Origin: Gemmatimonadota bacterium
Lineage (GTDB): Bacteria; JBHIER01; G020348925
Length of the DNA: 64,000 nucleotides
NCBI GenBank assembly: GCA_020348925.1
Contig: CP070758.1
Span: forward strand, 2,020,030 to 2,084,029
Direction of reading: 5' to 3'
The notes below the pieces were generated by a model, which did not search any database, was not told the DNA's origin, and was given only the letters and a program-made list of their open reading frames with translations. The stretch's first letter is position 1, and every line of letters begins with the position of its first letter. Below are positions 9,528 through 29,024 of this stretch, piece after piece. The translations under genes were made by a program, and so were the position numbers.

Positions 9528-10895
9528 TTATCGTTTAAATTTACTGTCCAACTCATTAAGCGGCATACGAATAAATGTTGGTCTTCCATGAGGACAAAAG
9601 TCCGGATTGGGGGTTGCAAAGAGCATGTCGATGAGGTTGTTCATCTCATCCTGTGAGAGGGGGTCGCCGTCTTTGATGGCGGTTTTGCAGGCGAACGAGA
9701 TGGCTATCCGCTCCCGGATATTTTTTTCCGTCTTCCCGGTCTCGATGAGATCGTCCAGGATATCTTTCATCGCCTGCTCGCCGGTCGTATGACGCAGGAG
9801 CGCCGGAATGGCTTCGACAACGACCGTGTTTCCACCGAAGAGTTTGATGCTGAATCCTAATTGTTGGAACAGTGGCAATGCCTCGGCCATGACTGCCAGC
9901 TCTTCGAAGGACAATTCCATTGTGAGCGGGAAGAGCAACTGTTGGCCGGTCGCCCGTTGCCCCTCAAAGCTCTTCTTGGCCAATTCATAGAGCACCCGTT
10001 CGTGGGCCGCATGTTGATCGATAATGACGGCCCCGTCTTTGATCTGTGCCAGAATATATCGCTTGTGGAGCTGCCATAACGTGACCTTTTCCTCGGCCAA
10101 TGAACCCATCCCTTGCACTGAGCTTTCATCTTCAGCCCCCCCCTTGTCTTCTCCTTTCTGCGACTGGAGTGTCATATGTTCTCTTTCGTTTTCAGGAATC
10201 TGACTCGATGCCGTTCGTTGGAGATCCATTTGAAGAACCGGTTCATTGAAGGGGAAACGGGCCGCCAACTCTTTTCTTATATCGGCGCGAGCATGGGGAG
10301 GAGTCCATTGAGGTGCAGCCGTCTTCTTTCCCAATGCACTCCGAACCGCGCTGACAAGGGCGTGATGGACCGATCTTTCGTCGGCAAAGCGAACTTCCCG
10401 TTTCGTCGGATGAACGTTGACATCGACTCGGATCCTGTCGATGTCCAGCAGGATAACTGCCATGGGAAACTTTCCCTTTTGCAGCTGCGGCTGATAACCC
10501 TCGAAGATGGCATGGTAAAGAAGCTGGCTGACGATCGGTCGCCTATTGACAAAGATAAACTGGTGGACTCTCGATGATCTCGCCGACTCTGGTCTTCCGA
10601 TCCATCCGGATATTTGGATCCCATCGGCTTTGTAATCCAAGGGTAAGGCCTCTTTCAATAACTGAGGACCATAAATGTCTTGAAGCCGAAGTTTCAAGCT
10701 CTCCGCTTTGGACCAATGAAAGAGCTCCCTCTCATTGTGATGGAGCGTAAATCCTATCTCAGGGTGGGCTATGGCACACTGTATTATTGTCCGCGTGCTA
10801 TGTCGCAGTTCCGTAGACGCGCTTCGTAAAAATTTTCGTCGGGCAGGTGTGTTGTAGTACAGTTGTTTTACGGTGACCGTTGTCCCGACTGCGCG
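9528..10895 (-). CDS. mutL: DNA mismatch repair endonuclease MutL, 5'-truncated by gap
   Basis: GTTVTVKQLYYNTPARRKFL, DVNVHPTKREVRF; endonuclease motifs DQHAAHERVLYE, ACK and CPHGRP. Confidence 0.96.
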   Translation of the reverse strand, partial: RAVGTTVTVKQLYYNTPARRKFLRSASTELRHSTRTIIQCAIAHPEIGFTLHHNERELFHWSKAESLKLRLQDIYGPQLLKEALPLDYKADGIQISGWIGRPESARSSRVHQFIFVNRRPIVSQLLYHAIFEGYQPQLQKGKFPMAVILLDIDRIRVDVNVHPTKREVRFADERSVHHALVSAVRSALGKKTAAPQWTPPHARADIRKELAARFPFNEPVLQMDLQRTASSQIPENEREHMTLQSQKGEDKGGAEDESSVQGMGSLAEEKVTLWQLHKRYILAQIKDGAVIIDQHAAHERVLYELAKKSFEGQRATGQQLLFPLTMELSFEELAVMAEALPLFQQLGFSIKLFGGNTVVVEAIPALLRHTTGEQAMKDILDDLIETGKTEKNIRERIAISFACKTAIKDGDPLSQDEMNNLIDMLFATPNPDFCPHGRPTFIRMPLNELDSKFKR

Positions 10896-10995
10896 NNNNN
10901 NNNNNNNNNNNNNNNNNNNNNNNNNNNNNNNNNNNNNNNNNNNNNNNNNNNNNNNNNNNNNNNNNNNNNNNNNNNNNNNNNNNNNNNNNNNNNNN
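10896..10995. other. Assembly gap / contig join (100 N)
   Basis: Run of exactly 100 N. Confidence 0.98.
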
Positions 10996-13969: not shown

Positions 13970-14191
13970 CTCAGAGTCCCTCCTTTCCTTCCTCACGGAT
14001 ATATTGAGTGTGTGTCAAAAAGTCCTCAGCCTTCGAATACCAGCTGACTTCGAAATTTTAAACGTTTTTAAATTCTTGAGGAATATCCATACTCTTTTTG
14101 CTGGAAGTTTTACACGAATGTCTGATTCTGGTTGATTCTCGTATATGCAGATGTGACGATGTCTTGGCTGATAGCCTGACAGCGTCATCTA

Positions 14192-14594: not shown

Positions 14595-17588
14595 ATGGAT
14601 AATTTCATCGGTCAAACGATATCCCACTATCAAATCATCGAGAAACTCGGCGAAGGCGGCATGGGGGTCGTCTATAAGGCTGAGGACACCAAGCTCCGGC
14701 GCACCGTTGCCCTGAAATTTCTACCGGCAGTTATGACCCGTGACCCGGAGGCTAAGGAGCGCTTCATCCAGGAGGCACGGGCGGCCTCGGCCATGGACCA
14801 TTCCAATATCTGTACCATTCATGAAATCGGCGAGACCGAAGATGGGCATATGTTCATCTGTATGGCCTGCTATGAGGGACAGACCCTCAAGGACAAAATC
14901 AAAGACGGACCGTTGGAGCTTGGAGAGGCCGTGAATATCGCTGTGCAGGCTGCGCAAGGTCTGGCCAAAGCTCACGATCAGGGAATTGCCCACCGGGACA
15001 TCAAGCCGGCCAACATTTTCATCACCGAAGATAACGAGGTGAAAATCGTCGATTTCGGTCTGGCTAAATTGGCGGGTAACATGGGGCTCACGAAGACCGG
15101 AACGACTGTGGGTACGGTGCCCTACATGTCACCCGAACAGATCCGCGGCCAGGGAGTTGATCACCGAACCGACATCTGGTCTCTGGGCGCGGTGTTGTAT
15201 GAGATGGTCACCGGGGAGATGGCCTTCAAAGGGGAATACGAGCAGGCGGTGATGTATTCTATCATGAGTGAGGAGCCGGAGCCGATCGTAAATTTCCGCT
15301 CGGATGTGCCACAGGATCTGGAATGGGTTATCCAGAAGGCGCTCCAGAAGGATGTCAGCGAGCGATATCAGGATGTGGCTGAAATGCTGATCGATCTGAG
15401 GAGGTTCGCCCAGGGTGCGGTGGTCGAAGGTGCGATCCGGCCGCCCAGGGTATTGGAGGAGGAGATCACAAAAAAATTGTTGAAGAGGATTGTGTTGCCT
15501 GTGGGTATTGTCCTCTTTTTCGTCATCGCCGTTGTCCTGGTCCGACCGCTTCTTCTCCAGCAGGTACTGGTTTCGGAGCCGAAGCCCATCGCCGTGATCA
15601 GCTTTGTCAACCAGACGGGGGACAGCACCTATGATTATCTCCAAACGGTCATTCCGAATTTATTGATCACGAGCCTTGAACAATCACCCAATATCCGTGT
15701 CGCCACCTGGGAGCGCATGTATGACCTCCTGAAACAGATCGGCAAGGAGGATAGGGATATCATTGACAGGGAACTGGGATTTGAAATCTGCCGCATGGAT
15801 GGTATCGATGTCATCGTCCTGGGCAGCTTCACCCGAACGGGCGATATATTCGCGACTGATGTGAAGGTGTTGGATGTGACAACGAAAGATCTGCTGAAGG
15901 GTGCCACGTTCAAAGGCGAGGGGGTTGCCAGCATTCTCAAAACACAGATCGATGAACTCACGAGGGAGATCTCTCGAGGTGTGGGCATTTCCGATCTTGC
16001 GTTCGAAGAAGCCGGAACCGGGATCGCCGATATGACAACTTCCTCAATGGAGGCGTACAACTATTTCTTGAGGGGTAAAGAGAATTGCGAAAAATTCTAT
16101 TACGATGATGCCCTGCCATTTCTCGAAAAGAGTGTGGATCTCGATTCGACCTTCGCTGTGGCATACCTCTATCTTGGCTGGGCATACGATTGGTTGCACG
16201 ATAACGACGCCAGAAAGAACGCCTACGAGAAGGCGAAAAAATTCTCCCAAAAAGCAACAGACAAGGAAAGACTCTATATCGAGGCGACGTACGCCGGGGA
16301 GATTGAAAACGATCGGGAAAAGAAATATCATGTCCTCAAACAGATTACCCAGAAATATCCGAAGGAAAAGCGAGCGCATCTCTTATTGGCGGAGTATTAC
16401 AGAACACAGAGAGTGCTGGCTGAGGCCATACTTGAGTTCCATAAGGCCCTGGAACTCGATCCCAATTACGGATTTGCCATGAATCAGCTGGCTTACACGT
16501 ACGCTGATAGTGGTGACTTTGAGAAGGCCATCGAATATTTTGAGAGGTACGCATCCGTATCTCCCGGGGACGCAAATCCATTCGATTCAATGGCCGAGCT
16601 CTATGTGCGCATGGGAAAGCTCGATGAGGCGATAGTACAATACAACAAGGCCTTGGACATAAAACCGGACTTCGGTTCGGATTGGAGTATCGCCTACATC
16701 TATGCCTTGAAGGAAGAGTACTCCGAGGTCATGACGTGGATCAATCAGTTTTTATCCATGGCCCCTTCGCCGGGGATACGAGTACAGGGATATGTGTGGA
16801 AGGGGCTGTATCACTGCTTACTGGGGAGTTTCGACGAGTCCCTGAGTGATCTTGAAAGAGCGGTGGAACTGGCCGACGTCATAGGGAACGAGGCGTGGAA
16901 AGCCCATGCGGACAGGACAAAAGCGTGGATTTATTATGAGAAGGGTGAGTTTGAGCGCGGTCGGAGATTCATTCGAAATTGGCTCGATTTCTATTCAGAA
17001 TACTATCCACCATACATACCATATTTTACGGCCAGTCATAAAACGTATCTTGGTTTGGCTGATATAAAGCAGGGGCGAACCGATTCGGCATGGGTCAGGC
17101 TGGAAGATATAAAATCTCTGTTGCCCGACATAGCTCCGAAGGTGAAGGGAAATATAACGTTCGGTTATGACGTGCTTTACGGAGAGTACTTGCTCGCTTC
17201 AGACTCCCTCGAAAAAGCCATCGCTACCGGCGAAAAAGCATCGCCTCTGGGAAAGCTTCCGCTGATGCACCCATGGAATCTCCTCCCCTATAATGTGCCC
17301 TTCCGGAAAGATGTATTGGCGCGGGCATATCAACGGACGGGAGAGATCGACGAAGCCATCTCCGAGTACGAGCGTTTGATCACAGTTGACCCGAACAGCG
17401 TGGAGCGGCCGCTCATTCACCCCGTGTATCACTATCATTTAGCCAATCTGTATTCGGAGAAGGGCCTGTCAGACAAAGCCGTTTCCCAGTACGAGCAGTT
17501 CCTCGACATCTGGAAGGATGCCGATGAAGATCTGCCAGAACTGATAGACGCCAAGGCGAGATTGGCGAGGTTGAGGGAGGCGGGTTGA
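14595..17588 (+). CDS. Hanks-type Ser/Thr protein kinase with a TM helix, TolB-N-like domain and multiple TPRs
   Basis: LGEGGMGVVY, VALK, HRDIKPANI, DFG, YMSPEQ, DIWSLG; hydrophobic IVLPVGIVLFFVIAVVLV; IAVISFVNQTGD; TPR-like helical repeats. Confidence 0.93.
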   Translation: MDNFIGQTISHYQIIEKLGEGGMGVVYKAEDTKLRRTVALKFLPAVMTRDPEAKERFIQEARAASAMDHSNICTIHEIGETEDGHMFICMACYEGQTLKDKIKDGPLELGEAVNIAVQAAQGLAKAHDQGIAHRDIKPANIFITEDNEVKIVDFGLAKLAGNMGLTKTGTTVGTVPYMSPEQIRGQGVDHRTDIWSLGAVLYEMVTGEMAFKGEYEQAVMYSIMSEEPEPIVNFRSDVPQDLEWVIQKALQKDVSERYQDVAEMLIDLRRFAQGAVVEGAIRPPRVLEEEITKKLLKRIVLPVGIVLFFVIAVVLVRPLLLQQVLVSEPKPIAVISFVNQTGDSTYDYLQTVIPNLLITSLEQSPNIRVATWERMYDLLKQIGKEDRDIIDRELGFEICRMDGIDVIVLGSFTRTGDIFATDVKVLDVTTKDLLKGATFKGEGVASILKTQIDELTREISRGVGISDLAFEEAGTGIADMTTSSMEAYNYFLRGKENCEKFYYDDALPFLEKSVDLDSTFAVAYLYLGWAYDWLHDNDARKNAYEKAKKFSQKATDKERLYIEATYAGEIENDREKKYHVLKQITQKYPKEKRAHLLLAEYYRTQRVLAEAILEFHKALELDPNYGFAMNQLAYTYADSGDFEKAIEYFERYASVSPGDANPFDSMAELYVRMGKLDEAIVQYNKALDIKPDFGSDWSIAYIYALKEEYSEVMTWINQFLSMAPSPGIRVQGYVWKGLYHCLLGSFDESLSDLERAVELADVIGNEAWKAHADRTKAWIYYEKGEFERGRRFIRNWLDFYSEYYPPYIPYFTASHKTYLGLADIKQGRTDSAWVRLEDIKSLLPDIAPKVKGNITFGYDVLYGEYLLASDSLEKAIATGEKASPLGKLPLMHPWNLLPYNVPFRKDVLARAYQRTGEIDEAISEYERLITVDPNSVERPLIHPVYHYHLANLYSEKGLSDKAVSQYEQFLDIWKDADEDLPELIDAKARLARLREAG

Positions 17589-17646
17589 TATCAAGCTTTT
17601 CGAAAAACTTTACTAATCTGTATAATTCCTTGATAAAATAAAAGTT

Positions 17647-17731
17647 GTCATTCGTCCGAAGGCAGGAACCTCCTCGATTTGCTGATCACACACACTCCAG
17701 TAAGGAGATTCCGGGGAAAAACCGGCATGAC
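17647..17731. repeat. Degenerate GTCATT...ATGAC REP/MITE-like palindromic element
   Basis: gtcattcgtccgaaggcaggaacctcc...ggagattccggggaaaaaccggcatgac. Confidence 0.5.
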
Positions 17732-17873
17732 GTAGTAATTACCGTGAAATGTGTCGTGTAACAAAGTACAAAACCAAAAATCACCATAAGTCAATAAATA
17801 TTTTAAGGTTACGCTGCATTTAAATTATTTTATGACCGAAACTGAGCGATCTTTAGACAAAAGTAACGGAGTG

Positions 17874-17959
17874 GTCATTCTGAACGGAGCAAGGCCAAGT
17901 GAAGAATCTCACTCACAAGGTGAGAGATGCTTCGCCCGATAAATCAAGCTCAGAATGAC
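17874..17959. repeat. GTCATTCTGA...GAAGAATCTC / GAGATGCTTCG...TCAGAATGAC REP/MITE-like element
   Basis: 10-bp terminal inverted repeat GTCATTCTGA/TCAGAATGAC plus an inner GAAGAATCTC/GAGATGCTTC stem. Confidence 0.65.
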
Positions 17960-18117
17960 ATCTCAGTCATAGTGTTTGCCAAGAATTACTCAATTTAGGT
18001 ACGAATAATTCAGGCGAAACTTTGAAAGTGTCGTGAAGTTCAATGAGAATAGATGGCGGAATACATGGACTGCCAGCGAGATTGAAGGACCGGAGCCTTT
18101 TCTCTCTTTCGATACAT

Positions 18118-19128
18118 TCAGACACCCTGGAGCATGTGCAGTTGCCACAGTTCCCGGCTGCTCGTATGAAGAAAGGGCGAAATGGCCAACCTCCCTGTTT
18201 TCCCGATGCTTTTTTCCAAATATCTCATCTCCTCGAAGTTCTCTCGTATCTCCGGGTCCGCAGAGGGTTCGAATCCGGCCTCCCGTAGCATGAGTATCCC
18301 CTTGGCTCTGACGGACAACTCCAGGTGAATCCGCAACAGACACAGCATATCGGCCACAATCTCTCCGGAAAACCGGTCTTTGAGGGAATCCAGGTACCTC
18401 CCAATTTTGGTCTCCGAGATGTTTCCCGTGGTGATCATGTCGAGAAGAAGGACATCCGTATCAAGACCCACCTCCAGCCAGAATTGGAGGGATTTTTCGC
18501 TCCGGGAGAAAACGACAACGATGACCAGGGGAAGCAGAATTAACTGCAAGACGGTTGTCACAACCGGCGAGAAGATGAAGTTGTTAAAGAATCCATGGAT
18601 TACAATCGCTACGATGATTCCCGGGAGAAAGATGTGGAATTTTTCAGTGAATCCCCGATCGGCTGCATTCTTTGACATGATCCCCATGGCTGCCGTTGTC
18701 CCACCATGCATCACCGCCGTTCCCAGTCCTCGAAGGATCCAAAGGAATATATTCGCATCCTGCAAATACTTGAGATAATATATGTTTTCGACAAGGGCGA
18801 AGCCGGCCCCGATGGCGAAGCCGTAGATGGCCGCATCCACCAGAAATCCGATCCTTTTCGATTTGATTAAAAAGACAATATAGACTGCCTTGAATAGCTC
18901 CTCAATAACCGGGGCTCCACCCTTGGAGTATGATGAGAAATCGACGCCCAAAAGATTTATCAAGAGACTGTTCATGAACAGGGATCCCACTGCTGTAACG
19001 CAACCAATGAGGATCGTCAGCAGGATCGAGCGAAATTTCACCAGCTTATAGCTGTCCAATACTACAAAAGCCACAAGGAAATAGAAAACGGGCAGGAGAC
19101 TTACTGACGCTCTGACGATGAAATCCAC
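18118..19128 (-). CDS. PrsW-family intramembrane glutamic/metallo protease with a C-terminal soluble extension
   Basis: Several TM helices; PVIEELFK (EExxK), GFALVEN (FxxxE), VMHGG and IVIHGFFN (HxxxN) motifs. Confidence 0.88.
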   Translation of the reverse strand: MDFIVRASVSLLPVFYFLVAFVVLDSYKLVKFRSILLTILIGCVTAVGSLFMNSLLINLLGVDFSSYSKGGAPVIEELFKAVYIVFLIKSKRIGFLVDAAIYGFAIGAGFALVENIYYLKYLQDANIFLWILRGLGTAVMHGGTTAAMGIMSKNAADRGFTEKFHIFLPGIIVAIVIHGFFNNFIFSPVVTTVLQLILLPLVIVVVFSRSEKSLQFWLEVGLDTDVLLLDMITTGNISETKIGRYLDSLKDRFSGEIVADMLCLLRIHLELSVRAKGILMLREAGFEPSADPEIRENFEEMRYLEKSIGKTGRLAISPFLHTSSRELWQLHMLQGV

Positions 19129-19249
19129 GGTAGGAGCAAAGAGAGTGAAACTCTTGATTTACAGGTTTACATTAGTACGCTCACCGGTGTACCAACACAG
19201 TGCCAGGCTGGACGTATTATTGAGACACTTCTCCTTTTGAAACAAAATA

Positions 19250-22200
19250 CTATCTCAATATTTTAAGGGAAATCATAAACTCTTTCTCTATAGAATGATG
19301 TTTCTCGAAGGCCAATGCATATCCCAGAGAGAGTGTCGACGGAAGGTTAGAGAATATGACGAGCTGCATATCTATCTGACCACCGGCATTCATTACGGAT
19401 CGTCTGTAATCTTTGCTCGTCAGCTCGAAGAGATCGTCAGGATCCACGTTCGTCTTGATTCCGGAGGTGAAAACGGCCATTCGGGCCCAGTTACAGTACA
19501 GGACAGGAAATCCGAATCGCCGGAATCGCAGAGGCGGAAAGGTCCATTCGAGCATCATTTTGGCGTAATTTGTACCACCGATGGCGTTGAGCTCGACACC
19601 GGGAAAGCTGTAATACTCCCTGTAACGCTTGATGGACAAATAATCGACCCAGTTGTTGCCAAACCCTCCGAAATAAAAGTTGGCAAAGGGTTCGTCCCGA
19701 TCACCGTGAGCATATCCGAAGGAGCTTCTCAACCAGAGTGCCATGTGCTCGATGGGGAGCAAAAACCCGTAATCGAGGTTTGCGTTGACATGAGGGTAGA
19801 ATTTTTCGTTGACGTAGGTGTTGAAGGAGTTTATTTGCCCAGTCACCCCTTTCTCGGAATCGACCCCACCCAATGTTGTCCGCTTATTGGAGTAATTCAA
19901 ATTTGCCCGCAGTGTCACAAACTTGTCGTAGGAGACCGCAACGTTCTGGAAATCCGGGAGCCGTTCGAGTCCGCCGTAACCGGCCACATTGAAGGAATAA
20001 TCCAGCATCTTCGGCTTCTCGTAGATGAGGTAACTTTGATAATTCAGGGACAACGAATAGCCTTTCCGACTCTTCTTGGTGGGGCCGAAAAGGTCGTAGA
20101 AATCCGCTCCGTTGTATGAGGCCGAGATATCCCACGGCCACTTGCTATAGTTAAAGGTGGTGTGGAATCGTTCGTCACCCGGTAATTTCGAATAGGGCGA
20201 ATAGGATGCTGTGAGATTGAAGTCGTTCATCCTGATGGGATCGGCGAAATTCATGCGGATCCCAAGGGCCACATAATCACTGTGTCCGTCAACGTACGTG
20301 TCCCTGTATCCCTCAACAACGGGATAGACGGAGGCAAGTTTTATGTTCCGAAAAGGACTGTAGGGACCGCTAAAGGTTGTCAGGGAATCGATATTGATGG
20401 ACGCCGGTGATCCGGCCATCCACTCCGTGACGATGGGGTGTCGGTCCACAACGGCCTGCCCCAGGTACCGTATGGCACTCACGTCCTCCAGCGGTTGCGC
20501 GGAGATCATGACCGGTAGAAATCCTTTCCCTGTGTACCGGAAGACGATGAGAGAGTCGCCCGGGAGAGGGACCGGTCGAAAGAAACCGGTCTCGCAATTT
20601 GTCAGGATGTCCATGTGTTCGGTTTCGAAATCGTATCTCCAGACGTTTGAGACACCCGTGTAGTATGAGGTTCCGAGGAGATAGCGACCGTCGTCAGTGA
20701 AGACAAAATTTTGAGGGGCATTTTCCTCGAATTCGTACAGCACGTCGTAGGAGGTGTCCTTGCTCAGGAGGTTTTCGATGTTCATTCTGATGAGACGCTG
20801 CCTGCCGGTGACCTCGATGATGGACGCCGTCAGGTACTTTCCGTCCGGGGAGATATCGAGATCGAAGATGTTCTTTCCGTAGGGCAAGACGAAAATATCC
20901 TCCCACGTCTCATAAGGAGATGGAATCCGAACCACTATGGATCGCCCGTTGTGGTGTTGCACACCCCATAACGATTTGTCCGCACGATTGAAGGCCAGAT
21001 CCCCGGTCCGACAGTCCTTGATCAGCCTTTTCGACGTTCCGGTCTGAAGGTCGACGACCCGAATATCCCGCCAGCGAAAAACGTTATCGGTCGTGAAGAA
21101 GATGTTCCGTGTGTCCGGATCGTAGGCCAGGGACGAGACGTAGTACAAGGCAGGCCCGGGAACATTGCAGATCTTCTCGATCCTGCCGGTGTCGATATCG
21201 ATGGAGGAGATGTTGGCCAGTTGGCCGGGGTAGAGGGTGGCTGCATACAGTTTTCTCGTCACTGGATCGTAGAATGAGCGTGAGACCGAGCCGAGGGCGC
21301 GCTCGGACAGAGGCCGATACTGCGTCACAGGATTGGCATGAATCGAGTCGAGATTTGTCCGTTGCCACTGATGCTCCCACTCGACCCAAGCGACCCACTC
21401 GTCATCCAGGGATCGCCCGTACACCTTCTTGAACTGGGAGGTAAAATATCGTTTGCTCTCACCAGTTCGATCGAACCACTCCAGCAGTTTCTCAGGCCCA
21501 TAGTGATAGGCCAGATAGCTCACGAAACGGGTCCCGTAGAGGTAAGAGTTTTGGCCGACCTGAAAATCGATGGTCGTGCCCTCGGATTCGAGCCCCACGA
21601 TATCGTAGAAGTAGCTGCTGTCCCGAACCATGGTTCTGAAAACCATCTCATCATAACCACCCAGGGCGCGTCCGAGACCTCCAGACATCCACGTCTCCAA
21701 AAAGACGGCGATCCCTTCATGGTACCACCGCGGACAGTACCACCGGGGACTCGTCAGATAACTGTAAAACATCGAGAGGGGATAGTCGGCGATGGGCAAG
21801 ACCTTTCCGAAGAATATCGTACGATAGAATTCATCGTTCGGTGAAGATTTGTCTGTGGCCACCACGTGGACAAGCTCATGGTGCATGAGCCAGTTCATTC
21901 GCTCATTGGACGGGGCCGTTTCATACACCTGCTCAAAAGGTTCGATACCGAGGGTGATGTAGTTCCAGGGCATCGTTATCGTCCCGCCGTGTCCAATATC
22001 TCCAAAATCATGCAGCAGAATGAGCACTTTTTCCGAAGGCGTATAGTCAAAAAGCTCCCTGTGAAACTTCATTGAGTTTTCGAAACTCCGGGCCAGATGG
22101 GCAATGATGTAGTAACTTTCCTCGAAGTACACCAAAAGCAGAAACTCTGTCTCCAGCGACTGAAGCTGCACTGAGGCGGCGGGCATTGAGATGAGGAATA

Positions 22201-22258
22201 AAAAAATGCAACTTATAGAAAAAACAAAACGTTTCACGAGTGATTCCCTCCCTTTCAT
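19250..22258 (-). CDS. Secreted/outer-membrane protein: gluzincin (HEXXH...E) peptidase domain, TolB-like beta-propeller and C-terminal beta-barrel (Omp85/BamA-like by inference)
   Basis: Signal peptide; HHELVH followed by WYHEGIAVF; propeller-like blades (LAYDPDTR, LDISPDGK, FVFTDDGR); the last ~350 aa are aromatic amphipathic beta-strands with a YFGGFGN loop. Confidence 0.7.
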   Translation of the reverse strand: MKGRESLVKRFVFSISCIFLFLISMPAASVQLQSLETEFLLLVYFEESYYIIAHLARSFENSMKFHRELFDYTPSEKVLILLHDFGDIGHGGTITMPWNYITLGIEPFEQVYETAPSNERMNWLMHHELVHVVATDKSSPNDEFYRTIFFGKVLPIADYPLSMFYSYLTSPRWYCPRWYHEGIAVFLETWMSGGLGRALGGYDEMVFRTMVRDSSYFYDIVGLESEGTTIDFQVGQNSYLYGTRFVSYLAYHYGPEKLLEWFDRTGESKRYFTSQFKKVYGRSLDDEWVAWVEWEHQWQRTNLDSIHANPVTQYRPLSERALGSVSRSFYDPVTRKLYAATLYPGQLANISSIDIDTGRIEKICNVPGPALYYVSSLAYDPDTRNIFFTTDNVFRWRDIRVVDLQTGTSKRLIKDCRTGDLAFNRADKSLWGVQHHNGRSIVVRIPSPYETWEDIFVLPYGKNIFDLDISPDGKYLTASIIEVTGRQRLIRMNIENLLSKDTSYDVLYEFEENAPQNFVFTDDGRYLLGTSYYTGVSNVWRYDFETEHMDILTNCETGFFRPVPLPGDSLIVFRYTGKGFLPVMISAQPLEDVSAIRYLGQAVVDRHPIVTEWMAGSPASINIDSLTTFSGPYSPFRNIKLASVYPVVEGYRDTYVDGHSDYVALGIRMNFADPIRMNDFNLTASYSPYSKLPGDERFHTTFNYSKWPWDISASYNGADFYDLFGPTKKSRKGYSLSLNYQSYLIYEKPKMLDYSFNVAGYGGLERLPDFQNVAVSYDKFVTLRANLNYSNKRTTLGGVDSEKGVTGQINSFNTYVNEKFYPHVNANLDYGFLLPIEHMALWLRSSFGYAHGDRDEPFANFYFGGFGNNWVDYLSIKRYREYYSFPGVELNAIGGTNYAKMMLEWTFPPLRFRRFGFPVLYCNWARMAVFTSGIKTNVDPDDLFELTSKDYRRSVMNAGGQIDMQLVIFSNLPSTLSLGYALAFEKHHSIEKEFMISLKILR

Positions 22259-22295
22259 TCCACATAGTTCTCTTGGAATTTATCACCTGTGACCA

Positions 22296-22324
22296 AACAT
22301 AAGATGCTTTCTTCTCGTTGTCAA
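22296..22324 (-). promoter_or_regulatory. Putative sigma70 promoter of the peptidase-barrel gene
   Basis: TTGACA-N17-TATGTT immediately downstream of the terminator hairpin. Confidence 0.55.
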
Positions 22325-22334
22325 GTTTTTTGTT

Positions 22335-22372
22335 ATAAAAAGAAAGAGATGCCGAGCCTCGGCATCTCTTTC
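22335..22372 (-). terminator. Intrinsic terminator of the repeat-protein gene
   Basis: 14-bp perfect stem gaaagagatgccga/tcggcatctctttc with a 3-nt loop, followed by TTTTTA on the minus strand. Confidence 0.85.
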
Positions 22373-22404
22373 CCCTCTACTGTGTATGTCAACGACCGCC
22401 TGTC

Positions 22405-25400
22405 TTAGTGTTGATACTCCAGCTGGAAGGCCTGCAGATCGGAAACTAAGTTCTCAAGAGCTCGGATTTCCTCTCTCTGCAGAGTGGGGATCACCTGCTT
22501 CCTGAACCCATCAAACTCAGCCACAAGGTTCTCCAAAGCCTGGATCTGCTCGCGCTCCAGAGCCGGGATGACCCGCTTGTCCAAAGTCCGCAACTCAGCG
22601 CCCATATGTTCAAGGGCTTGGATCTGCTCACGCTCCAGGGCCGGGATGACCTGCTTCTGAAAGCCGTCATACTCAGTGACCAGGTTCTGCAAGGCCAGGA
22701 TCACTTGCTTCTCGAGCACCCGCAGCTCCTGCCGCTCCAGGGCCGGAATGACCTGCCGGTCCAAAGTGCGGAACTCACCGGCCATATGCTCAAGGGCCTG
22801 GATCTGCTCGCGCTCCAGGGCCGGGATGACCTGCTTCTGGAAGCCATGAAACTCAGTCACAAGGCTCTGCAGGGCTTGAATCTCTTGCCTCTGGAGGACC
22901 ACTATCTCTTGCCTCTCAAGAGCGGGAATGATCTCTCGCTCCAGGGCCGGGATCACCTGCTTCTGCAGGGCCGGAATGACCTGCCGCTCCAGGGCCGGAA
23001 TGACCTGCCGGTCCAGTGTCCGGAACTCACCGGCCATGTGTTCGAGGGCACGAATCTCCTCTTTCTCCAGGGCCGGGATCACCTGCTTCTGAAAACCATG
23101 AAAGGCAAGTGTCAGGTTCTCTAGGGCAGGGATGATCTCTTTCTCCAGGGCCGGGATCACCTGCTTCTGCAGGGCCAGAATGACCTGCTTCTGCAATGCG
23201 GGGATGATCTCTTTCTCCAGAGCTTGAATTTCCTGCTTCTCCAGGGCTGGAATGACCTGTCGCTCCAGGGTCGGGAGAACCTCTCTCTGCAAGGTCAGAA
23301 TGACCTGCCTCTGGAGGGCCGGGATGACCTGCTTGTCCAGGGTGTTCAGCTCAGCGCCCATATGTTCGAGGGCACGAATCTCCTCTTTCTCGAGGGCCGG
23401 GATCACCTGCTTCTGGAAACCATCGTACTCTTTAACCAGGCTCTCCAGAGCCGGGATGACCTCTCTCTCCAGGGCCGGGATCACCTGCTTGAACAAGGCA
23501 GGTAAGACCTCTTTTTCCAGGGCCAGAATCACCTGCTTCTCATAAGCTGGGATCACTTGCCTCTTTAGGGTGCTTAACTCAACCGCCATATGCTCAAGAG
23601 CCTGAATCTGTTCTCTCTCCAGAGCCGGGATCACCTGTTTCTGGAAACCATCAAACTCCGTGACCAAACTCTCCAACGCCTGAACCACTTCCTTTTCGAG
23701 GACCCGCAGCTCCTGGCGCTCAAAAGCAGGGATCACCTGCTTGTCCAGGGTGCGCAATTCAACCGCCATACTTTCGAGAGCCCTGATTTCCTCTCTCTCC
23801 AGCGCCGGGATGACCTGCCTCTGAAAACCGTGAAACTCAGTGACAAAACCCTGCAACACCTGAATCTCTTGCTTCTGGAGAACCAGCATCTCTTGCCGCT
23901 CCAAGGCCGGGATGACCTCTCTCTGAAGCGCCGGGATCACTTGTCTCTCCAGGGCCGGAATGATTTGCCGCTCCAGGGCCGGAATGACCTGCTTGTCCAG
24001 GGTAGTCAACTCAGCGGCCATGTGCTCAAGAGCACGGACTTCCTCTCTCTCTAAGGCCGGGATAACCTGCTTCTGAAAGCCATGAAACTCTTTGACCAAA
24101 TTCTCCAGGGCCGGGATGACCTCCCGCTGCAAGGCCAAGATCACCTGCTTTTCCAGAGCCGGGATGACCTCCCGCTCCAGGGCCGGAATGACCTCTCTCT
24201 CCAGCGCCGGGATCATCTCCCTCTCCAGAGCCGGAATAACCTGCCGCTCCAAGGCAGGGATCACCTGCTTCTGCAGGGCTGGAATTATCTGCCGCTCCAG
24301 AGCCGGAATGACCTGCTTGTCCAGGGTGTTCAGTTCTGCGGCCATATGTTCCAGAGCCCGGATTTCCTCTTTCTCCAGAGCCGGGATCACCTGCTTCTGG
24401 AACCCGTCAAATTCAACCACCACGTTCTCAAGAGCAGAAACGACCTCTTTCTGCAGGGCCAGAATGACCTGCTTCTCCAGGGCCGGGATGACCTCTCTCT
24501 GCAGGGCCAGAATGACCTGCTTCTCATAAGCCGGGATCACCTGCTTCTCCAGGGTGCTCAGCTCAGCGGCCATATGTTCCAGAGCCTGGATCTGCTCACG
24601 CTCCAGAGCCGGGATCACCTGCTTCTGGAAGCCATCAAACTCTTTGACCAGGTTCTCCAACGCCCGAATTTCTTCCCTTTCGAGAACCATTATTTCCTGC
24701 CTCTCAAGAGCGGGAATGACCTGTCGTTCCAAGGCCGGAATGACCTGCCGCTCCAAGGCCGGAATGACCTGCCGCTCTAAAGTAGGAATGATCTGCTTGT
24801 CTAAGGTGTTCAGCTCAGCAGCCATGCGTTCGAGAGCTTGGATCTGCTCGCGCTCCAGTGCAGGAATCACCTGTTTCTTGAAACCATCAAACTCCTTGAC
24901 CAGGTTTTCCAGGGCCGGGAGGACCTCTCTCTGCAGAGCCGGGATGACCTGCTTATTCAAAGCGGGAATGACCTCTTTCTCCAGGGCAGGGATCATCTCT
25001 TTCTCCAGGGCCGGAATAACCTGCCTGTCCAAGGTAGGAACAACCTCTTTCTGGAGTGCCGGCAGGACCTCTCTCTGCAGGGCAGGAATAACCTCTCTCT
25101 GCAGCGCAGGAATGACCTGCTTGTCCAATGTGCTCAATTCAGCGGCCATATGTTCGAGGGCTTGAATCTGCTCTTTTTCCAGCGCGGGCATCACCTGCCT
25201 TTTGAAGCCATCGAACTCCTTAACCAGGTTCTCCAAAGCCGGAATAACCTCTTTCTCCAAGGCCGGAATGACCTGTTTTTCCAAAGCCGGGATGACCTCT
25301 TTCTCCAAAGTCAGCATCACCTGCTTCTCGAATGTGGGGACCACGAGCTTTTCCAGTTTCCGCAACTGAGCGGTTGTCTGCTCGAGGGCCTGAATTTGCT

Positions 25401-25812
25401 CTTTCTCAAGAACAGGAAGCACCTGCTTCCGAAAACCATCAAACTCTGTCACGAGATTCTCTAACGCACGCAGCTCCTCCTTCTCTAAGACGGGGGTCAC
25501 CTGCCGTCCCAAGTGCTGCAATCTGGCAATCAAGTTCGCCAGTTGACGACCATCCATCTCCCCCAATTGGGGCTTCGTCGTATTTTCAAAGGCCTCAAAC
25601 TGCGCCGCCAAATTAAGGAGTTGTTGGCCTTCGAGGACCACGTCACTTTCTGTAATCTGATCCGCCCGGTATTTCTTGACTTTTCCGATCGTACCCCGTA
25701 CGTCTTCACCGGGCGTAGGTGGATAGAAGAACGCAAAATAAGCGATGACAAGAACTGCGATGACTATGCCACCAGCTAAAATTTTCTTCATCAAACCACT
25801 GCGCTTTTCCAT
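22405..25812 (-). CDS. Membrane-anchored hierarchical tandem-repeat protein (VIPAL[EQ][KR][EQ] octads plus 13 x ~44-aa modules); function unknown
   Basis: 1135-aa open frame after a GGAGG RBS; N-terminal hydrophobic helix ILAGGIVIAVLVIAYFAFFY then PP..GEDVRGTIGKVKKYRADQI; ~1030 aa of Pro-punctuated amphipathic repeats with synonymous third-position variation. Confidence 0.9.
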   Translation of the reverse strand: MEKRSGLMKKILAGGIVIAVLVIAYFAFFYPPTPGEDVRGTIGKVKKYRADQITESDVVLEGQQLLNLAAQFEAFENTTKPQLGEMDGRQLANLIARLQHLGRQVTPVLEKEELRALENLVTEFDGFRKQVLPVLEKEQIQALEQTTAQLRKLEKLVVPTFEKQVMLTLEKEVIPALEKQVIPALEKEVIPALENLVKEFDGFKRQVMPALEKEQIQALEHMAAELSTLDKQVIPALQREVIPALQREVLPALQKEVVPTLDRQVIPALEKEMIPALEKEVIPALNKQVIPALQREVLPALENLVKEFDGFKKQVIPALEREQIQALERMAAELNTLDKQIIPTLERQVIPALERQVIPALERQVIPALERQEIMVLEREEIRALENLVKEFDGFQKQVIPALEREQIQALEHMAAELSTLEKQVIPAYEKQVILALQREVIPALEKQVILALQKEVVSALENVVVEFDGFQKQVIPALEKEEIRALEHMAAELNTLDKQVIPALERQIIPALQKQVIPALERQVIPALEREMIPALEREVIPALEREVIPALEKQVILALQREVIPALENLVKEFHGFQKQVIPALEREEVRALEHMAAELTTLDKQVIPALERQIIPALERQVIPALQREVIPALERQEMLVLQKQEIQVLQGFVTEFHGFQRQVIPALEREEIRALESMAVELRTLDKQVIPAFERQELRVLEKEVVQALESLVTEFDGFQKQVIPALEREQIQALEHMAVELSTLKRQVIPAYEKQVILALEKEVLPALFKQVIPALEREVIPALESLVKEYDGFQKQVIPALEKEEIRALEHMGAELNTLDKQVIPALQRQVILTLQREVLPTLERQVIPALEKQEIQALEKEIIPALQKQVILALQKQVIPALEKEIIPALENLTLAFHGFQKQVIPALEKEEIRALEHMAGEFRTLDRQVIPALERQVIPALQKQVIPALEREIIPALERQEIVVLQRQEIQALQSLVTEFHGFQKQVIPALEREQIQALEHMAGEFRTLDRQVIPALERQELRVLEKQVILALQNLVTEYDGFQKQVIPALEREQIQALEHMGAELRTLDKRVIPALEREQIQALENLVAEFDGFRKQVIPTLQREEIRALENLVSDLQAFQLEYQH

Positions 25813-25870
25813 TGCTTTACCCTCCCTTCAAAGGTTTCAAACTTCCGACTACCAACCATCAACCATACAG

Positions 25871-25903
25871 CTAACGGATCAGACGAACCATACTCACCTC
25901 CTT
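25871..25903 (-). promoter_or_regulatory. Leader minigene MVRLIR* (25871-25891) with a perfect Shine-Dalgarno AAGGAGGTGA (25894-25903)
   Basis: Minus strand reads AAGGAGGTGA-GT-ATG GTT CGT CTG ATC CGT TAG, ending 58 nt before the repeat-gene start. Confidence 0.5.
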
Positions 25904-26041
25904 TTTTCATTGTCCAAATCTTTCAAGATCGTTAACTCATTACGTTGTCTTATCAAAGTACAAATCAAACTCGAAATAGTTGGTCTTTTTTTATACTTTT
26001 CCAATCATCCGGTATCCCGCCTGACAATAATAGGGCGGTCA

Positions 26042-26141
26042 NNNNNNNNNNNNNNNNNNNNNNNNNNNNNNNNNNNNNNNNNNNNNNNNNNNNNNNNNNN
26101 NNNNNNNNNNNNNNNNNNNNNNNNNNNNNNNNNNNNNNNNN
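26042..26141. other. Assembly gap / contig join (100 N)
   Basis: Run of exactly 100 N. Confidence 0.98.
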
Positions 26142-26429
26142 AGGATATGAATTTGGACCTATAATAACCCCAGAAACAATAGAGAAACATTTAAGAAACA
26201 CTTGAGATACGATAAAGAAACAATTTGATATGTATATTTTCTATACATCTCAAGTATTTTACCATCTCCCCGGGCCTTCTTTGATTTTCTGTTCGCCTTC
26301 CTTTAATCGAAAAAGAGCAAGTCTGAAGCAGATGAGTGGAACCGACAGGAAAGGTTAGAACTTTATAATTTTATAATTAATTATACAACATAGAGTTTCG
26401 AGACTAATATAGTAATCACATTAAATCTT

Positions 26430-26457
26430 AGTTCGTATAATATATATTATGTAAACA
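26430..26457 (+). other. dif-like XerC/XerD recombination site
   Basis: AGTTCGTATAA-TATATA-TTATGTAAACA: 11-6-11 layout close to E. coli dif (GGTGCGCATAA-TGTATA-TTATGTTAAAT), in AT-rich intergenic DNA. Confidence 0.78.
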
Positions 26458-26588
26458 TATTAATGATGTATCTTTTATTGTGTATATTCCAGAAGTCCAA
26501 ATCATACCATGATTAATCCTGATGGGACGTATAATTTTTGAATATTACGAGAAAATGGGTCTCTTGAGGGACGTAATACAGTTTCTGT

Positions 26589-29024
26589 CTATTGGGCAAC
26601 GATACTCAATAATTTTTTCTGAACGTAGACAGTCTTTTTGACTTTTTTGCCTTCGGTGTATTTTTGTACTCTTTCATTGTCGAAGGCAATCTTTTTCAGA
26701 GCATCCTCTGAAATATCTGCCTCCACATCTAAATGCGCCCGTACTTTTCCATTTATCTGGACAACGACTGTGATGTGATCGGTCTTAATCGCTTCATTAT
26801 CGTAAGTGGGCCAGGGATGTCGAAAAACACCTTCGTCATGGCCTAACTTCTCCCAGAGCTCCTCCCCTGCGTGCGGAGCGAACGGAGCTAACAGGAGCGC
26901 CAGAATATCCAAAGAACGGTTCCAGTCACGGTACTCTATTTTTTCCTCTTCCAGATAGAGATAATTCACGTACTCCATGAGAGCTGCAATGGCTGTATTA
27001 AAATGCAGTCGATCAACATCACCAGTCACTCTTTTAATTGTCTTGTGGATCCATCGATCCAATTCTCTTGGATGGACGGTTTTCTTTGCACTCGGACTTT
27101 TTTCGTAGAGCCGCCAAATACGGTTGAGAAATCGAAAGATACCACCAATACCCTGGTCGTTCCAGTCCCCTCCGTCCTCGTAGGAACCCATGAACATAAG
27201 GTACATTCTGAAGGTGTCGGCACCGAAGCTTTCGATGAACTCTTCAGGATTGACAACATTGCCTCTCGATTTGGACATACGTGCTCCGTCCTTCGTAATC
27301 TGACCCTGATGAGTGAGTTTCATAAAGGGTTCATCAAAATGAACAAATCCCAGATCAAACAGGGCCTTCGTAACAAAACGAGCATAGAGGAGATGCATGA
27401 CGGCATGCTCAGCCCCTCCCATATAGTGATCCACAGGAAGCCATTGTTTCACCAGCTCAGGGGAGAAAGGACCATCCTCGCAATGTGGATCCGGATACCT
27501 CAGGAAATACCAGGAAGAGCAGACAAAGGTATCCATAGTATCCACTTCCCTCTCCCCTGCTCCTCCACATTTTGGGCACTTCGTGTTTAGGAAATGAGAA
27601 GCAGAGGCTAAAGGTGAGAGATCTGAACCGGTCGGCTTGAAATCAACATCTTGTGGTAATAGAACAGGTAAATCCTCTTCCGGGACTGGAAGTTCTCCGC
27701 ATTCCTTACAGTAAATTATTGGTATGGGTGCTCCCCAGTAGCGCTGCCTGGATACAAGCCAATCCCTCAATTTATATTGAACGGTCTTTTTCCCCTGTCC
27801 TTTCTTATTGAGATCTTCGACAAGCCTGGCGATACATTCCTCATTGGTGAGACCGTTGTATGGACCGGAGTTCACCATGATTCCGGGCTCGATATATGCG
27901 CCCCTCATATCATCGAGAGGCGAAGGGCCGTCGTTGGGTCTCACCACTTCTCGGATGGGCAGCCCGAATTTCTGGGCGAATTCGAAATCCCGCTCATCGT
28001 GGGCAGGACAGGCAAAGACGATTCCTGTTCCGTAACTGGCTAAGACATAGTCGGCAATCCAGAGCGGGACGCGCTCACCATTGATCGGATTGATCACATT
28101 GCGACCGATAAAAACCCCTGTTTTTTCGCGATCAGCGGATATCCGCTCTATCTCCGAGATACGTCTTGATCTCTCGCAGTAAGCATCCACGTCACTTTTC
28201 TGTCCAGACGTCGTCAGCTCCGACACAAGAGGATGCTCAGGTGCCATGACGACATACGTCATCCCATAGAGTGTATCCGGTCTGGTGGTAAAGACTTCGA
28301 TCGTTCGTGCATCATCCTCTATGTGAAAAGAGAGCAGGGCCCCCTCACTCCGCCCAATCCAGTTGCGCTGCATTGCCAGCGTCTTCTCAGGCCAGTCGAT
28401 CTTAGCGTGATCTTTGAGCAGTCGTTCCGCGTAAGCCGTGATCCGAAAGAACCACTGGGTGAGATCCCTTTTGGTCACCTCGCTGTCACATCGTTCACAC
28501 AAACCCTGAACAACTTGCTCGTTGGCCAAGACGGTCCGGCATTGCGGGCACCAGTTCACCGGTGCCCGCTTCCGATAGGCCAATCCATGCTTATATAACT
28601 GCAGAAAGAGCCATTGCGTCCATTTATAGTATTCTGGATCGCTCGTATTGATCTCTTTATCCCAGTCGTACATGGCCCCGATGGCCTTGATCTGTTGGCG
28701 AATATAATCGATGTTTTCCGCCGTGCTCACCGCAGGGTGAACACCGTGCTTTATGGCGTAATTTTCGGCAGGGAGGCCGAAGGCATCAAAACCCATGGGC
28801 TCAAACACATTGTACCCCTGCATCTTCTTGAATCGGGTCCAGGTATCGGCAGGCCCATAGTTGTACCAGTGCCCGATATGCAACTTCTCACCTGACGGAT
28901 AGCTGAACATAACCAGAGAGTAGAGCTTTCGGCTGGTGTCGGACATATCCGTTCTGTGGGCTCCGATCTTCTCCCAGATCCGTTGCCACTTCGACTCGAT
29001 CTCAGCAAAGGGGTAATCGGCCAT
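26589..29024 (-). CDS. leuS: Leucine--tRNA ligase
   Basis: MFSYPSGEKLHIGH, FTTRPDTLYG editing domain, RDWLVSRQRYWG, RMSKS (KMSKS variant). Confidence 0.97.
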   Translation of the reverse strand: MADYPFAEIESKWQRIWEKIGAHRTDMSDTSRKLYSLVMFSYPSGEKLHIGHWYNYGPADTWTRFKKMQGYNVFEPMGFDAFGLPAENYAIKHGVHPAVSTAENIDYIRQQIKAIGAMYDWDKEINTSDPEYYKWTQWLFLQLYKHGLAYRKRAPVNWCPQCRTVLANEQVVQGLCERCDSEVTKRDLTQWFFRITAYAERLLKDHAKIDWPEKTLAMQRNWIGRSEGALLSFHIEDDARTIEVFTTRPDTLYGMTYVVMAPEHPLVSELTTSGQKSDVDAYCERSRRISEIERISADREKTGVFIGRNVINPINGERVPLWIADYVLASYGTGIVFACPAHDERDFEFAQKFGLPIREVVRPNDGPSPLDDMRGAYIEPGIMVNSGPYNGLTNEECIARLVEDLNKKGQGKKTVQYKLRDWLVSRQRYWGAPIPIIYCKECGELPVPEEDLPVLLPQDVDFKPTGSDLSPLASASHFLNTKCPKCGGAGEREVDTMDTFVCSSWYFLRYPDPHCEDGPFSPELVKQWLPVDHYMGGAEHAVMHLLYARFVTKALFDLGFVHFDEPFMKLTHQGQITKDGARMSKSRGNVVNPEEFIESFGADTFRMYLMFMGSYEDGGDWNDQGIGGIFRFLNRIWRLYEKSPSAKKTVHPRELDRWIHKTIKRVTGDVDRLHFNTAIAALMEYVNYLYLEEEKIEYRDWNRSLDILALLLAPFAPHAGEELWEKLGHDEGVFRHPWPTYDNEAIKTDHITVVVQINGKVRAHLDVEADISEDALKKIAFDNERVQKYTEGKKVKKTVYVQKKLLSIVAQ

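Follow-up and report, generated by a model that had tools for sequence, protein, structure and literature searches.

Three neighbouring genes in a 64-kb stretch of a Gemmatimonadota genome (hereafter the window) raise the question of why a membrane-anchored repeat protein, a predicted outer-membrane zinc peptidase and an intramembrane protease of the PrsW family should be encoded together. The three open reading frames (ORFs) follow one another head to tail on the minus strand, encode products of 1135, 1002 and 336 aa, and are separated by spacers of 146 and then 121 nt. A first-pass annotation had recognised three co-directional genes, for a protein with one N-terminal transmembrane (TM) helix, a short unique segment and long repeats, a protein with a signal peptide, HELVH...WYHEG motifs, a propeller and a barrel, and a PrsW protease with intact catalytic motifs. 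The layout is correct in every particular and, as shown below, so is the description of each product. What we read differently is the purpose. With a probability of roughly 0.55, we consider the trio to be the distal, sigma-controlled half of a conserved sigma-PrsW envelope-signalling module, in effect a switch of the SigW/RsiW/PrsW type that has been extended. The extensions would be an outer-membrane zinc peptidase and a second PrsW client carrying a repeat tail.

To see how far the trio is kept elsewhere we scanned one genome per species, which gave at least 581 confirmed loci among at least 598 pattern matches. The best 80 were taken with their flanks, ORFs were called in all of them and these were searched with profiles seeded from the window proteins (locus counts include L084, which lies on the same contig as G020/L008). 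According to their record labels, the loci derive from Ignavibacteria and other Bacteroidota, Chlorobi-like bins, KSB1, Latescibacterota, Eisenbacteria, Krumholzibacteria, Calditrichia, Zixibacteria, Fibrobacterota-like bins, Acidobacteriota and others. The earlier annotation had anticipated that a TM protein with a conserved N-terminal motif, followed by any repeat tail, would accompany the other two genes across phyla, and this is indeed the case. A TM protein with the motif GTIG is encoded directly upstream of the barrel gene, on the same strand, in 63 of the 65 loci with at least 1 kb of upstream sequence; repeat proteins are encoded at this place in the remaining two as well, of which one is truncated by the contig end and the other has an unreadable motif region. 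On the downstream side, PrsW is the next gene in 71 of the 73 loci with 1.1 kb or more (the exceptions are L056 and L072), and the complete trio is present in 57 of the 61 loci having both flanks. Nor are the genes distributed independently of each other: among 41 sampled genomes, the two with a strong match to the barrel protein (E = 0) are also the two with a strong match to the PrsW subfamily (E 9e-158 and 3e-148). The other genome of this phylum in the sample has neither, which, at a completeness of only 87%, is not evidence of absence. Beyond PrsW, no gene is conserved downstream in the 80 loci. The three genes form a conserved unit, and its hallmark is the TM + GTIG segment with a variable repeat tail.

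The usual operon extends upstream, in the order extracytoplasmic function (ECF) sigma factor, anti-sigma factor, repeat protein, peptidase-propeller-barrel protein and PrsW. An ECF sigma gene precedes the repeat gene in 43 of the 51 loci with enough upstream DNA. Its product reaches the Pfam cut-offs for Sigma70_r2 and r4_2, and the best NCBIfam match is SigW (E 5.8e-35; 120.8 bits, under the equivalog cut-off of 209). Between the sigma and repeat genes lies a gene for a membrane protein of about 250 aa, with a TM helix visible in the alignment; a profile of 35 such sequences matched the N-terminal domain of RsiW (5wuq_C) with E 3.9e-11 over positions 4-77, the next match being at E 0.0057. 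In B. subtilis, as laid out in PMC10202637, PrsW is the site-1 protease of RsiW and the PrsW-RsiW-RasP-sigmaW pathway is established. Given an RsiW-like anti-sigma, a SigW-like sigma and a protease that performs site-1 cleavage in Bacillus, the classical role is the obvious reading of this family. The first-pass annotation had considered that role not evident, having seen no sigma/anti-sigma pair next to the trio. Within the window none indeed adjoins it, the neighbours being leuS upstream and a convergent Ser/Thr kinase-TPR gene downstream. The conclusion drawn from this has to be given up, since the trio is normally the 3' part of a SigW/RsiW-like operon, the cognate pair is present in the same genome and the promoter motif has been kept (see below). 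Genes for RsbW-like proteins (39 loci) and STAS proteins (25 loci) are also conserved upstream of the module, and the full module often follows an RsbW/STAS/PP2C partner switch, pointing to a phospho-switch as a second input to this sigma factor. In the genome studied here, STAS, HATPase_c_2 (RsbW-like) and GAF-SpoIIE/PP2C genes are found directly upstream of the cognate sigma gene (L103 12096-14126).

The connection between this switch and the trio is closest in the repeat protein itself. Throughout the 35 anti-sigma sequences a G is invariant some 12-20 residues past the TM helix and is followed by a consensus T, and this G-T pair aligns with the G-T of GTIG in the repeat protein. A profile-profile comparison (hhalign) of the repeat-protein N-terminus with the anti-sigma TM + G-T region gave a probability of 91% and E 1e-6 over 52 columns. 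The two proteins are fused in seven loci (L014, L031, L034, L036, L053, L074 and L082): the sigma gene is followed in these by one in-frame ORF comprising the anti-sigma N-domain, the TM helix, GTIG and the repeats, and a separate anti-sigma gene is absent. An eighth candidate, L060, was dropped, as a separate anti-sigma ORF (within 4848-6787) had merely matched the N-motif profile weakly. The same arrangement emerges from a wider search, in which a profile of the N-terminal 75 aa recovered 1592 cluster representatives at E<=0.001, and 773 at 1e-10, from 1.84 billion proteins. Twenty-five of the best 150 representatives carry an N-terminal extension, so that the motif begins only at residue 63-125, and the anti-sigma N-domain profile matches precisely these 25. 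Together with the fusions, the shared TM + G-T module indicates that the repeat protein is, as far as its sequence can tell, a membrane protein of the anti-sigma kind whose sigma-binding head was lost or was never there; in some lineages, by prediction, it is itself the anti-sigma.

Outside this module the repeat protein keeps very little. It begins with MEKRSGLMKK, a hydrophobic helix at residues 11-30 with basic residues before and acidic residues after it, and the segment YPPTPGEDVRGTIGKVKKYRADQITESDVVL, and continues as a tail of 1060 aa, so that the single TM helix, short unique segment and long repeats of the first description are all in place. Conservation is confined to the first ~60 residues; in the juxtamembrane segment Q52 is invariant and G40, I42, G43 and D57 are kept in at least 90% of 59 sequences. 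The tail contains 61 octads of the xVIPALEx type grouped in 12 larger E[FY][DH]GF modules, which the DNA mirrors as 24-nt units nested in units of 180-324 nt. A comparison of 61 tails showed that both sequence and period differ between lineages: units in other loci include ELQAALKSP, ASLQEKAxxFxR, NFRKAVQDK, DAAFQELLK, LPDADGGRQIK, VDAVKNLDAKT and EGLSGK, and periods are mostly multiples of 9 and 12 (8 in the window protein). About one quarter of these tails are only weakly periodic. Tail length ranges from 145 to 1060 aa, the window tail being the longest; the tails contain hardly any Cys and show no conservation at the C-terminus. No Pfam family reached its cut-off in the repeat protein as a single matched stretch, the listed hits being summed weak repeat matches; candidate identities from Pfam and NCBIfam such as RAD51D_N, RelE or a type III secretion system translocon were rejected on this ground, as summed repeats with no single passing stretch. 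One contig (L085 1-1822) encodes two tandem N-motif proteins whose tails are non-repetitive.

A long, hypervariable protein beside an Omp85-type barrel might also be cargo. This is what the first-pass annotation had proposed: PrsW would free the repeat protein of its inner-membrane anchorage, and the peptidase-barrel would trim and export or anchor it, as a fibre, a strut or a source of peptides, in the present context under control of the sigma factor. Several observations fit. A sigma-type promoter motif precedes the repeat gene, and the trio ranks first among the targets of this motif in the genome, as expected of an effector; the Omp85 family includes translocators, and FhaC and CdiB are among the fold matches of the barrel (Z 16.4-15.7); and variable tails are common in surface-exposed proteins. 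There is a computational precedent too, in that Zhang et al. 2012 (PMC3482391) proposed that PrsW frees membrane-tethered polymorphic toxins as the releasing peptidase of attached cargo, some of these cargos having long repeats. In the cases described there, however, PrsW is fused to the cargo and the cargo ends in a toxin domain, whereas in the present module PrsW has a gene of its own, and neither a toxin domain nor a conserved C-terminus is found in the tails. Two-partner secretion (TPS) is likewise similar in having an Omp85-superfamily barrel (Z 16.4 for FhaC, 15.8-15.7 for CdiB) encoded beside a long repetitive protein, but by Pfam and reading of the sequence the repeat protein has no TPS domain and no cleavable-looking signal peptide, its N-terminus being an uncleaved-looking TM anchor, and the model of the barrel protein shows no POTRA domain between propeller and barrel. 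No family passes as a single stretch in the repeat protein, its C-termini are unconserved, and its conserved end is the membrane-proximal one, common to it and the anti-sigma. The anti-sigma fusions, both in the seven loci and in 25 of 150 representatives, fit a regulator better than a cargo. We see no specific support for export, be it of a fibre or a multi-copy peptide precursor, and regard it as quite unlikely.

Features of the trio and its upstream region. Coordinates are those of the window; domain boundaries are given as residues of the encoded protein.
Feature	Coordinates	Strand	Remarks
PrsW-family intramembrane protease, residues 1-205, with conserved C-terminal domain, residues 206-336	18118..19128	-	GTG start
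Predicted outer-membrane protein, 1002 aa	19250..22258	-	signal-like helix, HExxH zinc-peptidase domain, TolB-like propeller, Omp85-type barrel
16-strand Omp85/BamA-type barrel, residues 629-1002	19253..20374	-	domain folded alone; Foldseek and VIA
Six-bladed TolB/PD40-like beta-propeller, residues 309-591	20486..21334	-	Foldseek and VIA
Helical HExxH...E peptidase domain, residues 30-308 (HELVH 127-131, E181)	21335..22171	-	invariant motif residues
Membrane-anchored repeat protein, 1135 aa	22405..25812	-	predicted N-in/C-out
Repeat tail, about residues 76-1135	22408..25587	-	xVIPALEx octads inside larger modules of 52-192 aa
Periplasmic juxtamembrane segment, residues 31-60 (YPP..G-T-I-G..KYRA.QI...DV.L)	25633..25722	-	alignment of 59 sequences
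TM helix, residues 11-30	25723..25782	-	read from sequence; aligns with TM helices of 58 orthologues
Duplicated native upstream segment	25711..26041	-	blastn, 98.8% over at least 331 bp to G000:C1:4936314-4936644
Promoter-like dyad CCAAC-N16-TGTA (P2)	25959..25983	-	147 nt upstream of the repeat-gene ATG

The identity of the protease is clear. PrsW matched PF13367 of Pfam over residues 34-204 with E 8.4e-24 (84.6 bits, cut-off 23.5), and E76, E77, E114, N115, H141, H178 and N182, which we take to correspond to the catalytic motifs of the family, are invariant in 62 homologues. It missed the cut-off of the Bacillus-type equivalog NF033739 (NCBIfam), with 35 bits against 225. The C-terminal domain of ~130 aa also has invariant residues in the 62 homologues; no Pfam family was returned for it, and a look-up in the ESM Atlas gave best scores of <=0.80 and no usable lead. 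Predicted complexes of PrsW with the N-terminal 75 aa of the repeat protein, run without controls, scored 0.41, 0.11 and 0.00, with a median of 0.11 (the mark being 0.32), and are evidence neither way.

The 1002-aa protein is the most elaborate member of the trio. In its HELVH (127-131) and WYHEG (178-182) motifs, H127, E128, H131 and E181 are invariant in 59 aligned homologues, E181 being the putative third zinc ligand. An AlphaFold2 model built on those homologues (predicted local distance difference test, pLDDT, 90.8; predicted template modelling score, pTM, 0.89) shows a signal-peptide-like N-terminal helix (by eye), a helical domain at ~30-308, the propeller at 309-591, a short helical linker and then about 16 long strands at 629-999. 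When the whole model was used for fold searches, only propellers were matched. The propeller is closest to TolB (1c5k; VIA Z 23.1, root mean square deviation 2.9, 244 aligned; Foldseek E 5.8e-9), with other six-bladed propellers tied with it within about 1-2 Z in VIA. When the barrel was folded alone (pLDDT 85.4), the top 50 Foldseek matches were all BamA (best E 7.9e-8), and VIA ranks 1-18 were all members of the Omp85 superfamily (BamA, Toc75, Sam50, FhaC, TamA and CdiB; Z 19.0 to 14.5), led by BamA 8xnb (Z 19.0, root mean square deviation 4.6, 285 aligned), with other porins at <=14.2. Sequence profiles see much less of this. The barrel is under the Pfam cut-off for Omp85_2 (E 0.0016, 18.3 bits, cut-off 23.1) and the peptidase domain under that for Peptidase_MA_2 (E 1e-3, 17.8-19.3 bits, cut-off 32.4); profile searches of the PDB sequences gave nothing significant for the barrel or for the peptidase domain, the best match of the latter being an M1 aminopeptidase at E 0.44. 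No POTRA domain was matched in Pfam either. The family is large, with at least 5899 proteins at E<=1e-10 among 8000 candidates scored, and the top 120 homologues, the product of the window itself aside, are 56-66% identical to the window protein.

Heinz and Lithgow 2014 (PMC4104836) defined a WD40-Omp85 cluster in which a TolB-like propeller takes the place of POTRA. An N-terminal TolB-like propeller and an Omp85-type barrel of 16 strands are what the window protein shares with that cluster, of which it may be a member; the account of the cluster in PMC4104836 mentions no peptidase domain, PrsW, sigma factor or repeat protein. The same paper likens WD40-Omp85 to a fusion of BamA and BamB and, for Omp85-metalloproteases, suggests a part in periplasmic quality control. 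One may ask whether the 1002-aa protein is simply an outer-membrane quality-control or assembly factor, a BamA-like barrel with its own periplasmic protease and a BamB/TolB-like propeller, with sigma, anti-sigma and PrsW only regulating its supply during envelope stress and the repeat protein acting as a periplasmic spacer or chaperone-like accessory. A barrel of the BamA type, a TolB-like propeller and 50-65% identity across phyla would all suit such a housekeeping-like activity. However, this account leaves unexplained why PrsW and the TM + G-T repeat protein adjoin the barrel gene in nearly every locus and why the repeat protein has the membrane module of an anti-sigma, and a strong barrel match was found in only two of the 41 sampled genomes. 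It seems to us distinctly improbable. A distant homologue (22-24% identity; L009 5916-8852, G008) shares the peptidase/PD40/barrel architecture, with a clear LRGYP loop motif. Its neighbours are LolCDE-like ABC transporter genes and a TetR regulator, and PrsW is not among them; the architecture is therefore older than the link to PrsW.

A promoter-like dyad, CCAAC-N16-TGTA, with the extended consensus ACCAACTTTT-N12-TGTA.TT, shows strong enrichment in front of the sigma genes. It has 71 matches in the 1.23 Mb of loci: 29 of 43 loci have it within 200 nt upstream of the sigma ORF, and 28 of 61 have it before the repeat gene. Seven of the 71 matches lie elsewhere on the operon strand, several of them before sigma genes with over-extended ORF calls, and just seven on the opposite strand. 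The window has a single match in its 64 kb (0.29 expected; 26 of 100 shuffled sequences had at least one), and it falls inside a native segment that is duplicated at the sigma locus. With a position weight matrix (PWM) built from 64 operon-strand sites of other genomes and scanned over the 5-Mb genome, the two copies of the window site ranked first genome-wide (23.1 bits, against 18.5 for the best shuffled score); the match upstream of the sigma gene itself has a 17-nt spacer in this genome and is outside the PWM scoring. The trio thus appears, from the distribution of the motif, to be the main target of its sigma factor, also after separation from it. A generic scan of 17400-26600 for sigma-70 promoters and terminators gave counts at or below those of shuffled sequences, and a simple scan found no terminators between the trio genes beyond chance. 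The third-best PWM match, at G000:C1:561462 (-), also exceeds the best shuffled score, with 19.9 bits; it lies 71 nt upstream of an ORF of 695 aa with a signal-like N-terminus, a possible further member of the regulon.

In this genome the sigma and anti-sigma genes lie elsewhere. The orthologous sigma factor (190 bits and 51% identity to a Latescibacterota sigma; the next ECF sigma has 102 bits) is encoded at 4.937 Mb with the orthologous anti-sigma (E 1.5e-34) adjoining it. Directly past the anti-sigma gene there is a truncated duplicate of the 5' end of the repeat gene. The segment common to both places holds the last anti-sigma codons, the intergenic region between the anti-sigma and repeat genes and the first 102 nt of the repeat gene; no further copies of the repeat-protein N-terminal motif were found in the whole genome. 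An M50 site-2 protease gene is present at 2.34 Mb. Upstream of the trio, 141 bp of the window (26142-26282) have an inverted copy of 100% identity at G000:C1:674082-674222 (L104 5083-5223), in an intergenic region beside a Fic/DOC-family gene and genes for dockerin/cohesin proteins with a type IX secretion system (T9SS) tail; no transposase was seen near that copy. Between leuS and the trio the sequence is mosaic, with the sigma-locus copy next to the 0.674-Mb copy.

Such a mosaic might be a natural product or an artefact of assembly, in which case the true genome would have a contiguous five-gene operon and the split would come from a chimeric join in a metagenome-derived assembly. The mosaic itself, with at least 331 bp 98.8% identical to the sigma locus next to 141 bp 100% identical to the 0.674-Mb site, is what such a join could look like. 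The region was found only in DNA runs of sediment metagenomes, no RNA run being listed; none of the contigs of four runs compared with 25200-27200 spans the mosaic, and those of the two best runs diverge at about 26287-26291. Run X2 contained two variants of 25744-25830 with depths of 4.43 and 3.3, summing to the flank depth of 7.71, which looks like two alleles of one locus and not two copies. On the other hand, a chimera needs two reciprocal false joins, as the sigma-locus copy continues into unrelated sequence and a convergent gene; contigs of short reads are expected to break at repeats, so that their failure to bridge the region proves little; and 8 of the 51 loci in other genomes also have no upstream sigma gene, which shows that natural uncoupling occurs. 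An assembly artefact is therefore in our opinion somewhat unlikely. The split may be a real rearrangement or a chimera, and either way the partners of the trio are in the same genome.

Our preferred reading of a sigma-PrsW module would work as follows. By homology, the anti-sigma would keep sigma at the inner membrane. As in B. subtilis, PrsW would make the site-1 cut in the periplasmic juxtamembrane segment with the invariant G-T, and the M50 site-2 protease encoded elsewhere would then release sigma, which would read the CCAAC-N16-TGTA promoters before its own gene and the repeat gene, a role suggested by where the motif is found. The trio would be the main output, and since it keeps its own promoter motif it would remain in the regulon after separation. 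Because it has the TM + G-T module of the anti-sigma and no sigma-binding domain, the repeat protein could be a second client of PrsW, probably cut at or near the G-T segment, and action of PrsW on this anchored protein is plausible. It might be a competing substrate that damps the switch or a sensing arm, and we cannot say which. The N-terminal domains of BamA face the periplasm, and by analogy the peptidase and propeller would do the same; hanging from the outer membrane, they might engage or trim the periplasmic tail and in this way link the state of the outer envelope to the access of PrsW.

Several points weigh against this reading. The SigW match is below its cut-off, as said above, and the anti-sigma reaches no Pfam family, is far under the NCBIfam anti-sigma cut-off and is Cys-less, having LKKHLSKNPEARQYF where RsiW has H..C..C, so that the zinc-binding H-x3-C-x2-C motif is missing. 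In this assembly the pair is 2.9 Mb away from the trio, and the 8 of 51 loci without upstream sigma and 2 of 73 without PrsW mean that the parts can be uncoupled. The PWM finds almost no other sites in the genome, hence self-regulation may be the main activity of the module, and the trio might serve as an effector and not as a sensor. Finally, the tails are not conserved in sequence while the 1002-aa protein, propeller included, is 50-65% identical across phyla, and a specific recognition of the tail by the propeller is thus not evident. A more specific version of the mechanism is a trans-envelope proteolytic gauge. Fixed to the inner membrane through a TM + G-T module that PrsW recognises in it as in the anti-sigma, the hypervariable tail would reach the zinc peptidase and propeller on the Omp85 barrel in the outer membrane. 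The extent of its engagement or consumption would report outer-membrane integrity or the spacing of the envelope, and this would set the access of PrsW to the anti-sigma. Since only the bulk of the tail would matter, its length and sequence could drift freely. We consider this version unlikely, although if true it would represent a kind of outer-envelope sensing in diderms without a described counterpart.

Signals that pass from the outer membrane or periplasm to an inner-membrane anti-sigma and end in release of sigma by sequential proteolysis are known from FecA-FecR-FecI and from the sigma-E/RseA/DegS/RseP pathway of Proteobacteria. The module described here is alike in outline, but the parts are unrelated: its operon has no TonB-dependent transducer, FecR domain, DegS or PDZ protease, and the outer-membrane partner is itself a peptidase. 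To our knowledge, PrsW-dependent control of ECF sigma factors is known in detail only from Bacillus. The sigma-W/RsiW/PrsW/RasP system of B. subtilis is the closest characterised one, with a sigma whose best match is SigW, an anti-sigma matching RsiW, PrsW with conserved motif residues and an M50 gene. It differs in that the host here is a diderm, PrsW is within the sigma operon and has the extra C-terminal domain of ~130 aa, the anti-sigma is without Cys ligands and a partner-switching set is often found upstream; the outer-membrane peptidase/propeller/barrel protein and the repeat-tailed TM protein have no counterpart in B. subtilis.

The same SigW/RsiW/PrsW core thus sits in a much larger gene set kept in many diderm phyla, with two parts absent from the described proteolytic pathways, an Omp85-anchored zinc peptidase with a TolB-like propeller and an anti-sigma-like protein with a repeat tail. 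If these work as proposed, they would provide a route from outer-membrane events to a SigW-type switch, as well as a function for a catalogued but unstudied Omp85 subfamily. The shared TM + G-T segment, a candidate PrsW recognition or cleavage site, and the promoter motif, which defines a very small regulon, are testable handles; possibly the split is another, as a natural case of output genes separated from their sigma factor. We found no paper describing the module (supplements aside), and in the main text of Casas-Pastor et al. 2021 (PMC7826278) PrsW, PD40, WD40 and peptidase do not occur. New in the genome studied here are the apparent separation from sigma and anti-sigma, the retained promoter motif, the link between repeat protein and anti-sigma at the profile level, and the longest of the tails.

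Some further features of the window concern its other genes. The convergent neighbour of PrsW (14595-17588, +) encodes a Hanks-type Ser/Thr kinase of 997 aa with a long TPR region and is not kept beside the module in other loci. Large secreted proteins are encoded at 4821-7850 (-) and 10868-13996 (-), one of them with an alpha-amylase domain and a T9SS C-terminal sorting tail, which indicates that the organism uses type IX secretion, and the other with a dockerin repeat. The mutL ORF (9528-11144) overlaps the upstream ORF of 1042 aa (10868-13996, -) by 277 nt, and the real mutL start probably lies further downstream than in the mechanical ORF call. The GC content falls to 0.41 at 26001-28000, compared with ~0.50 elsewhere, in a region that takes in the AT-rich spacer 26283-26588 and the start of leuS.

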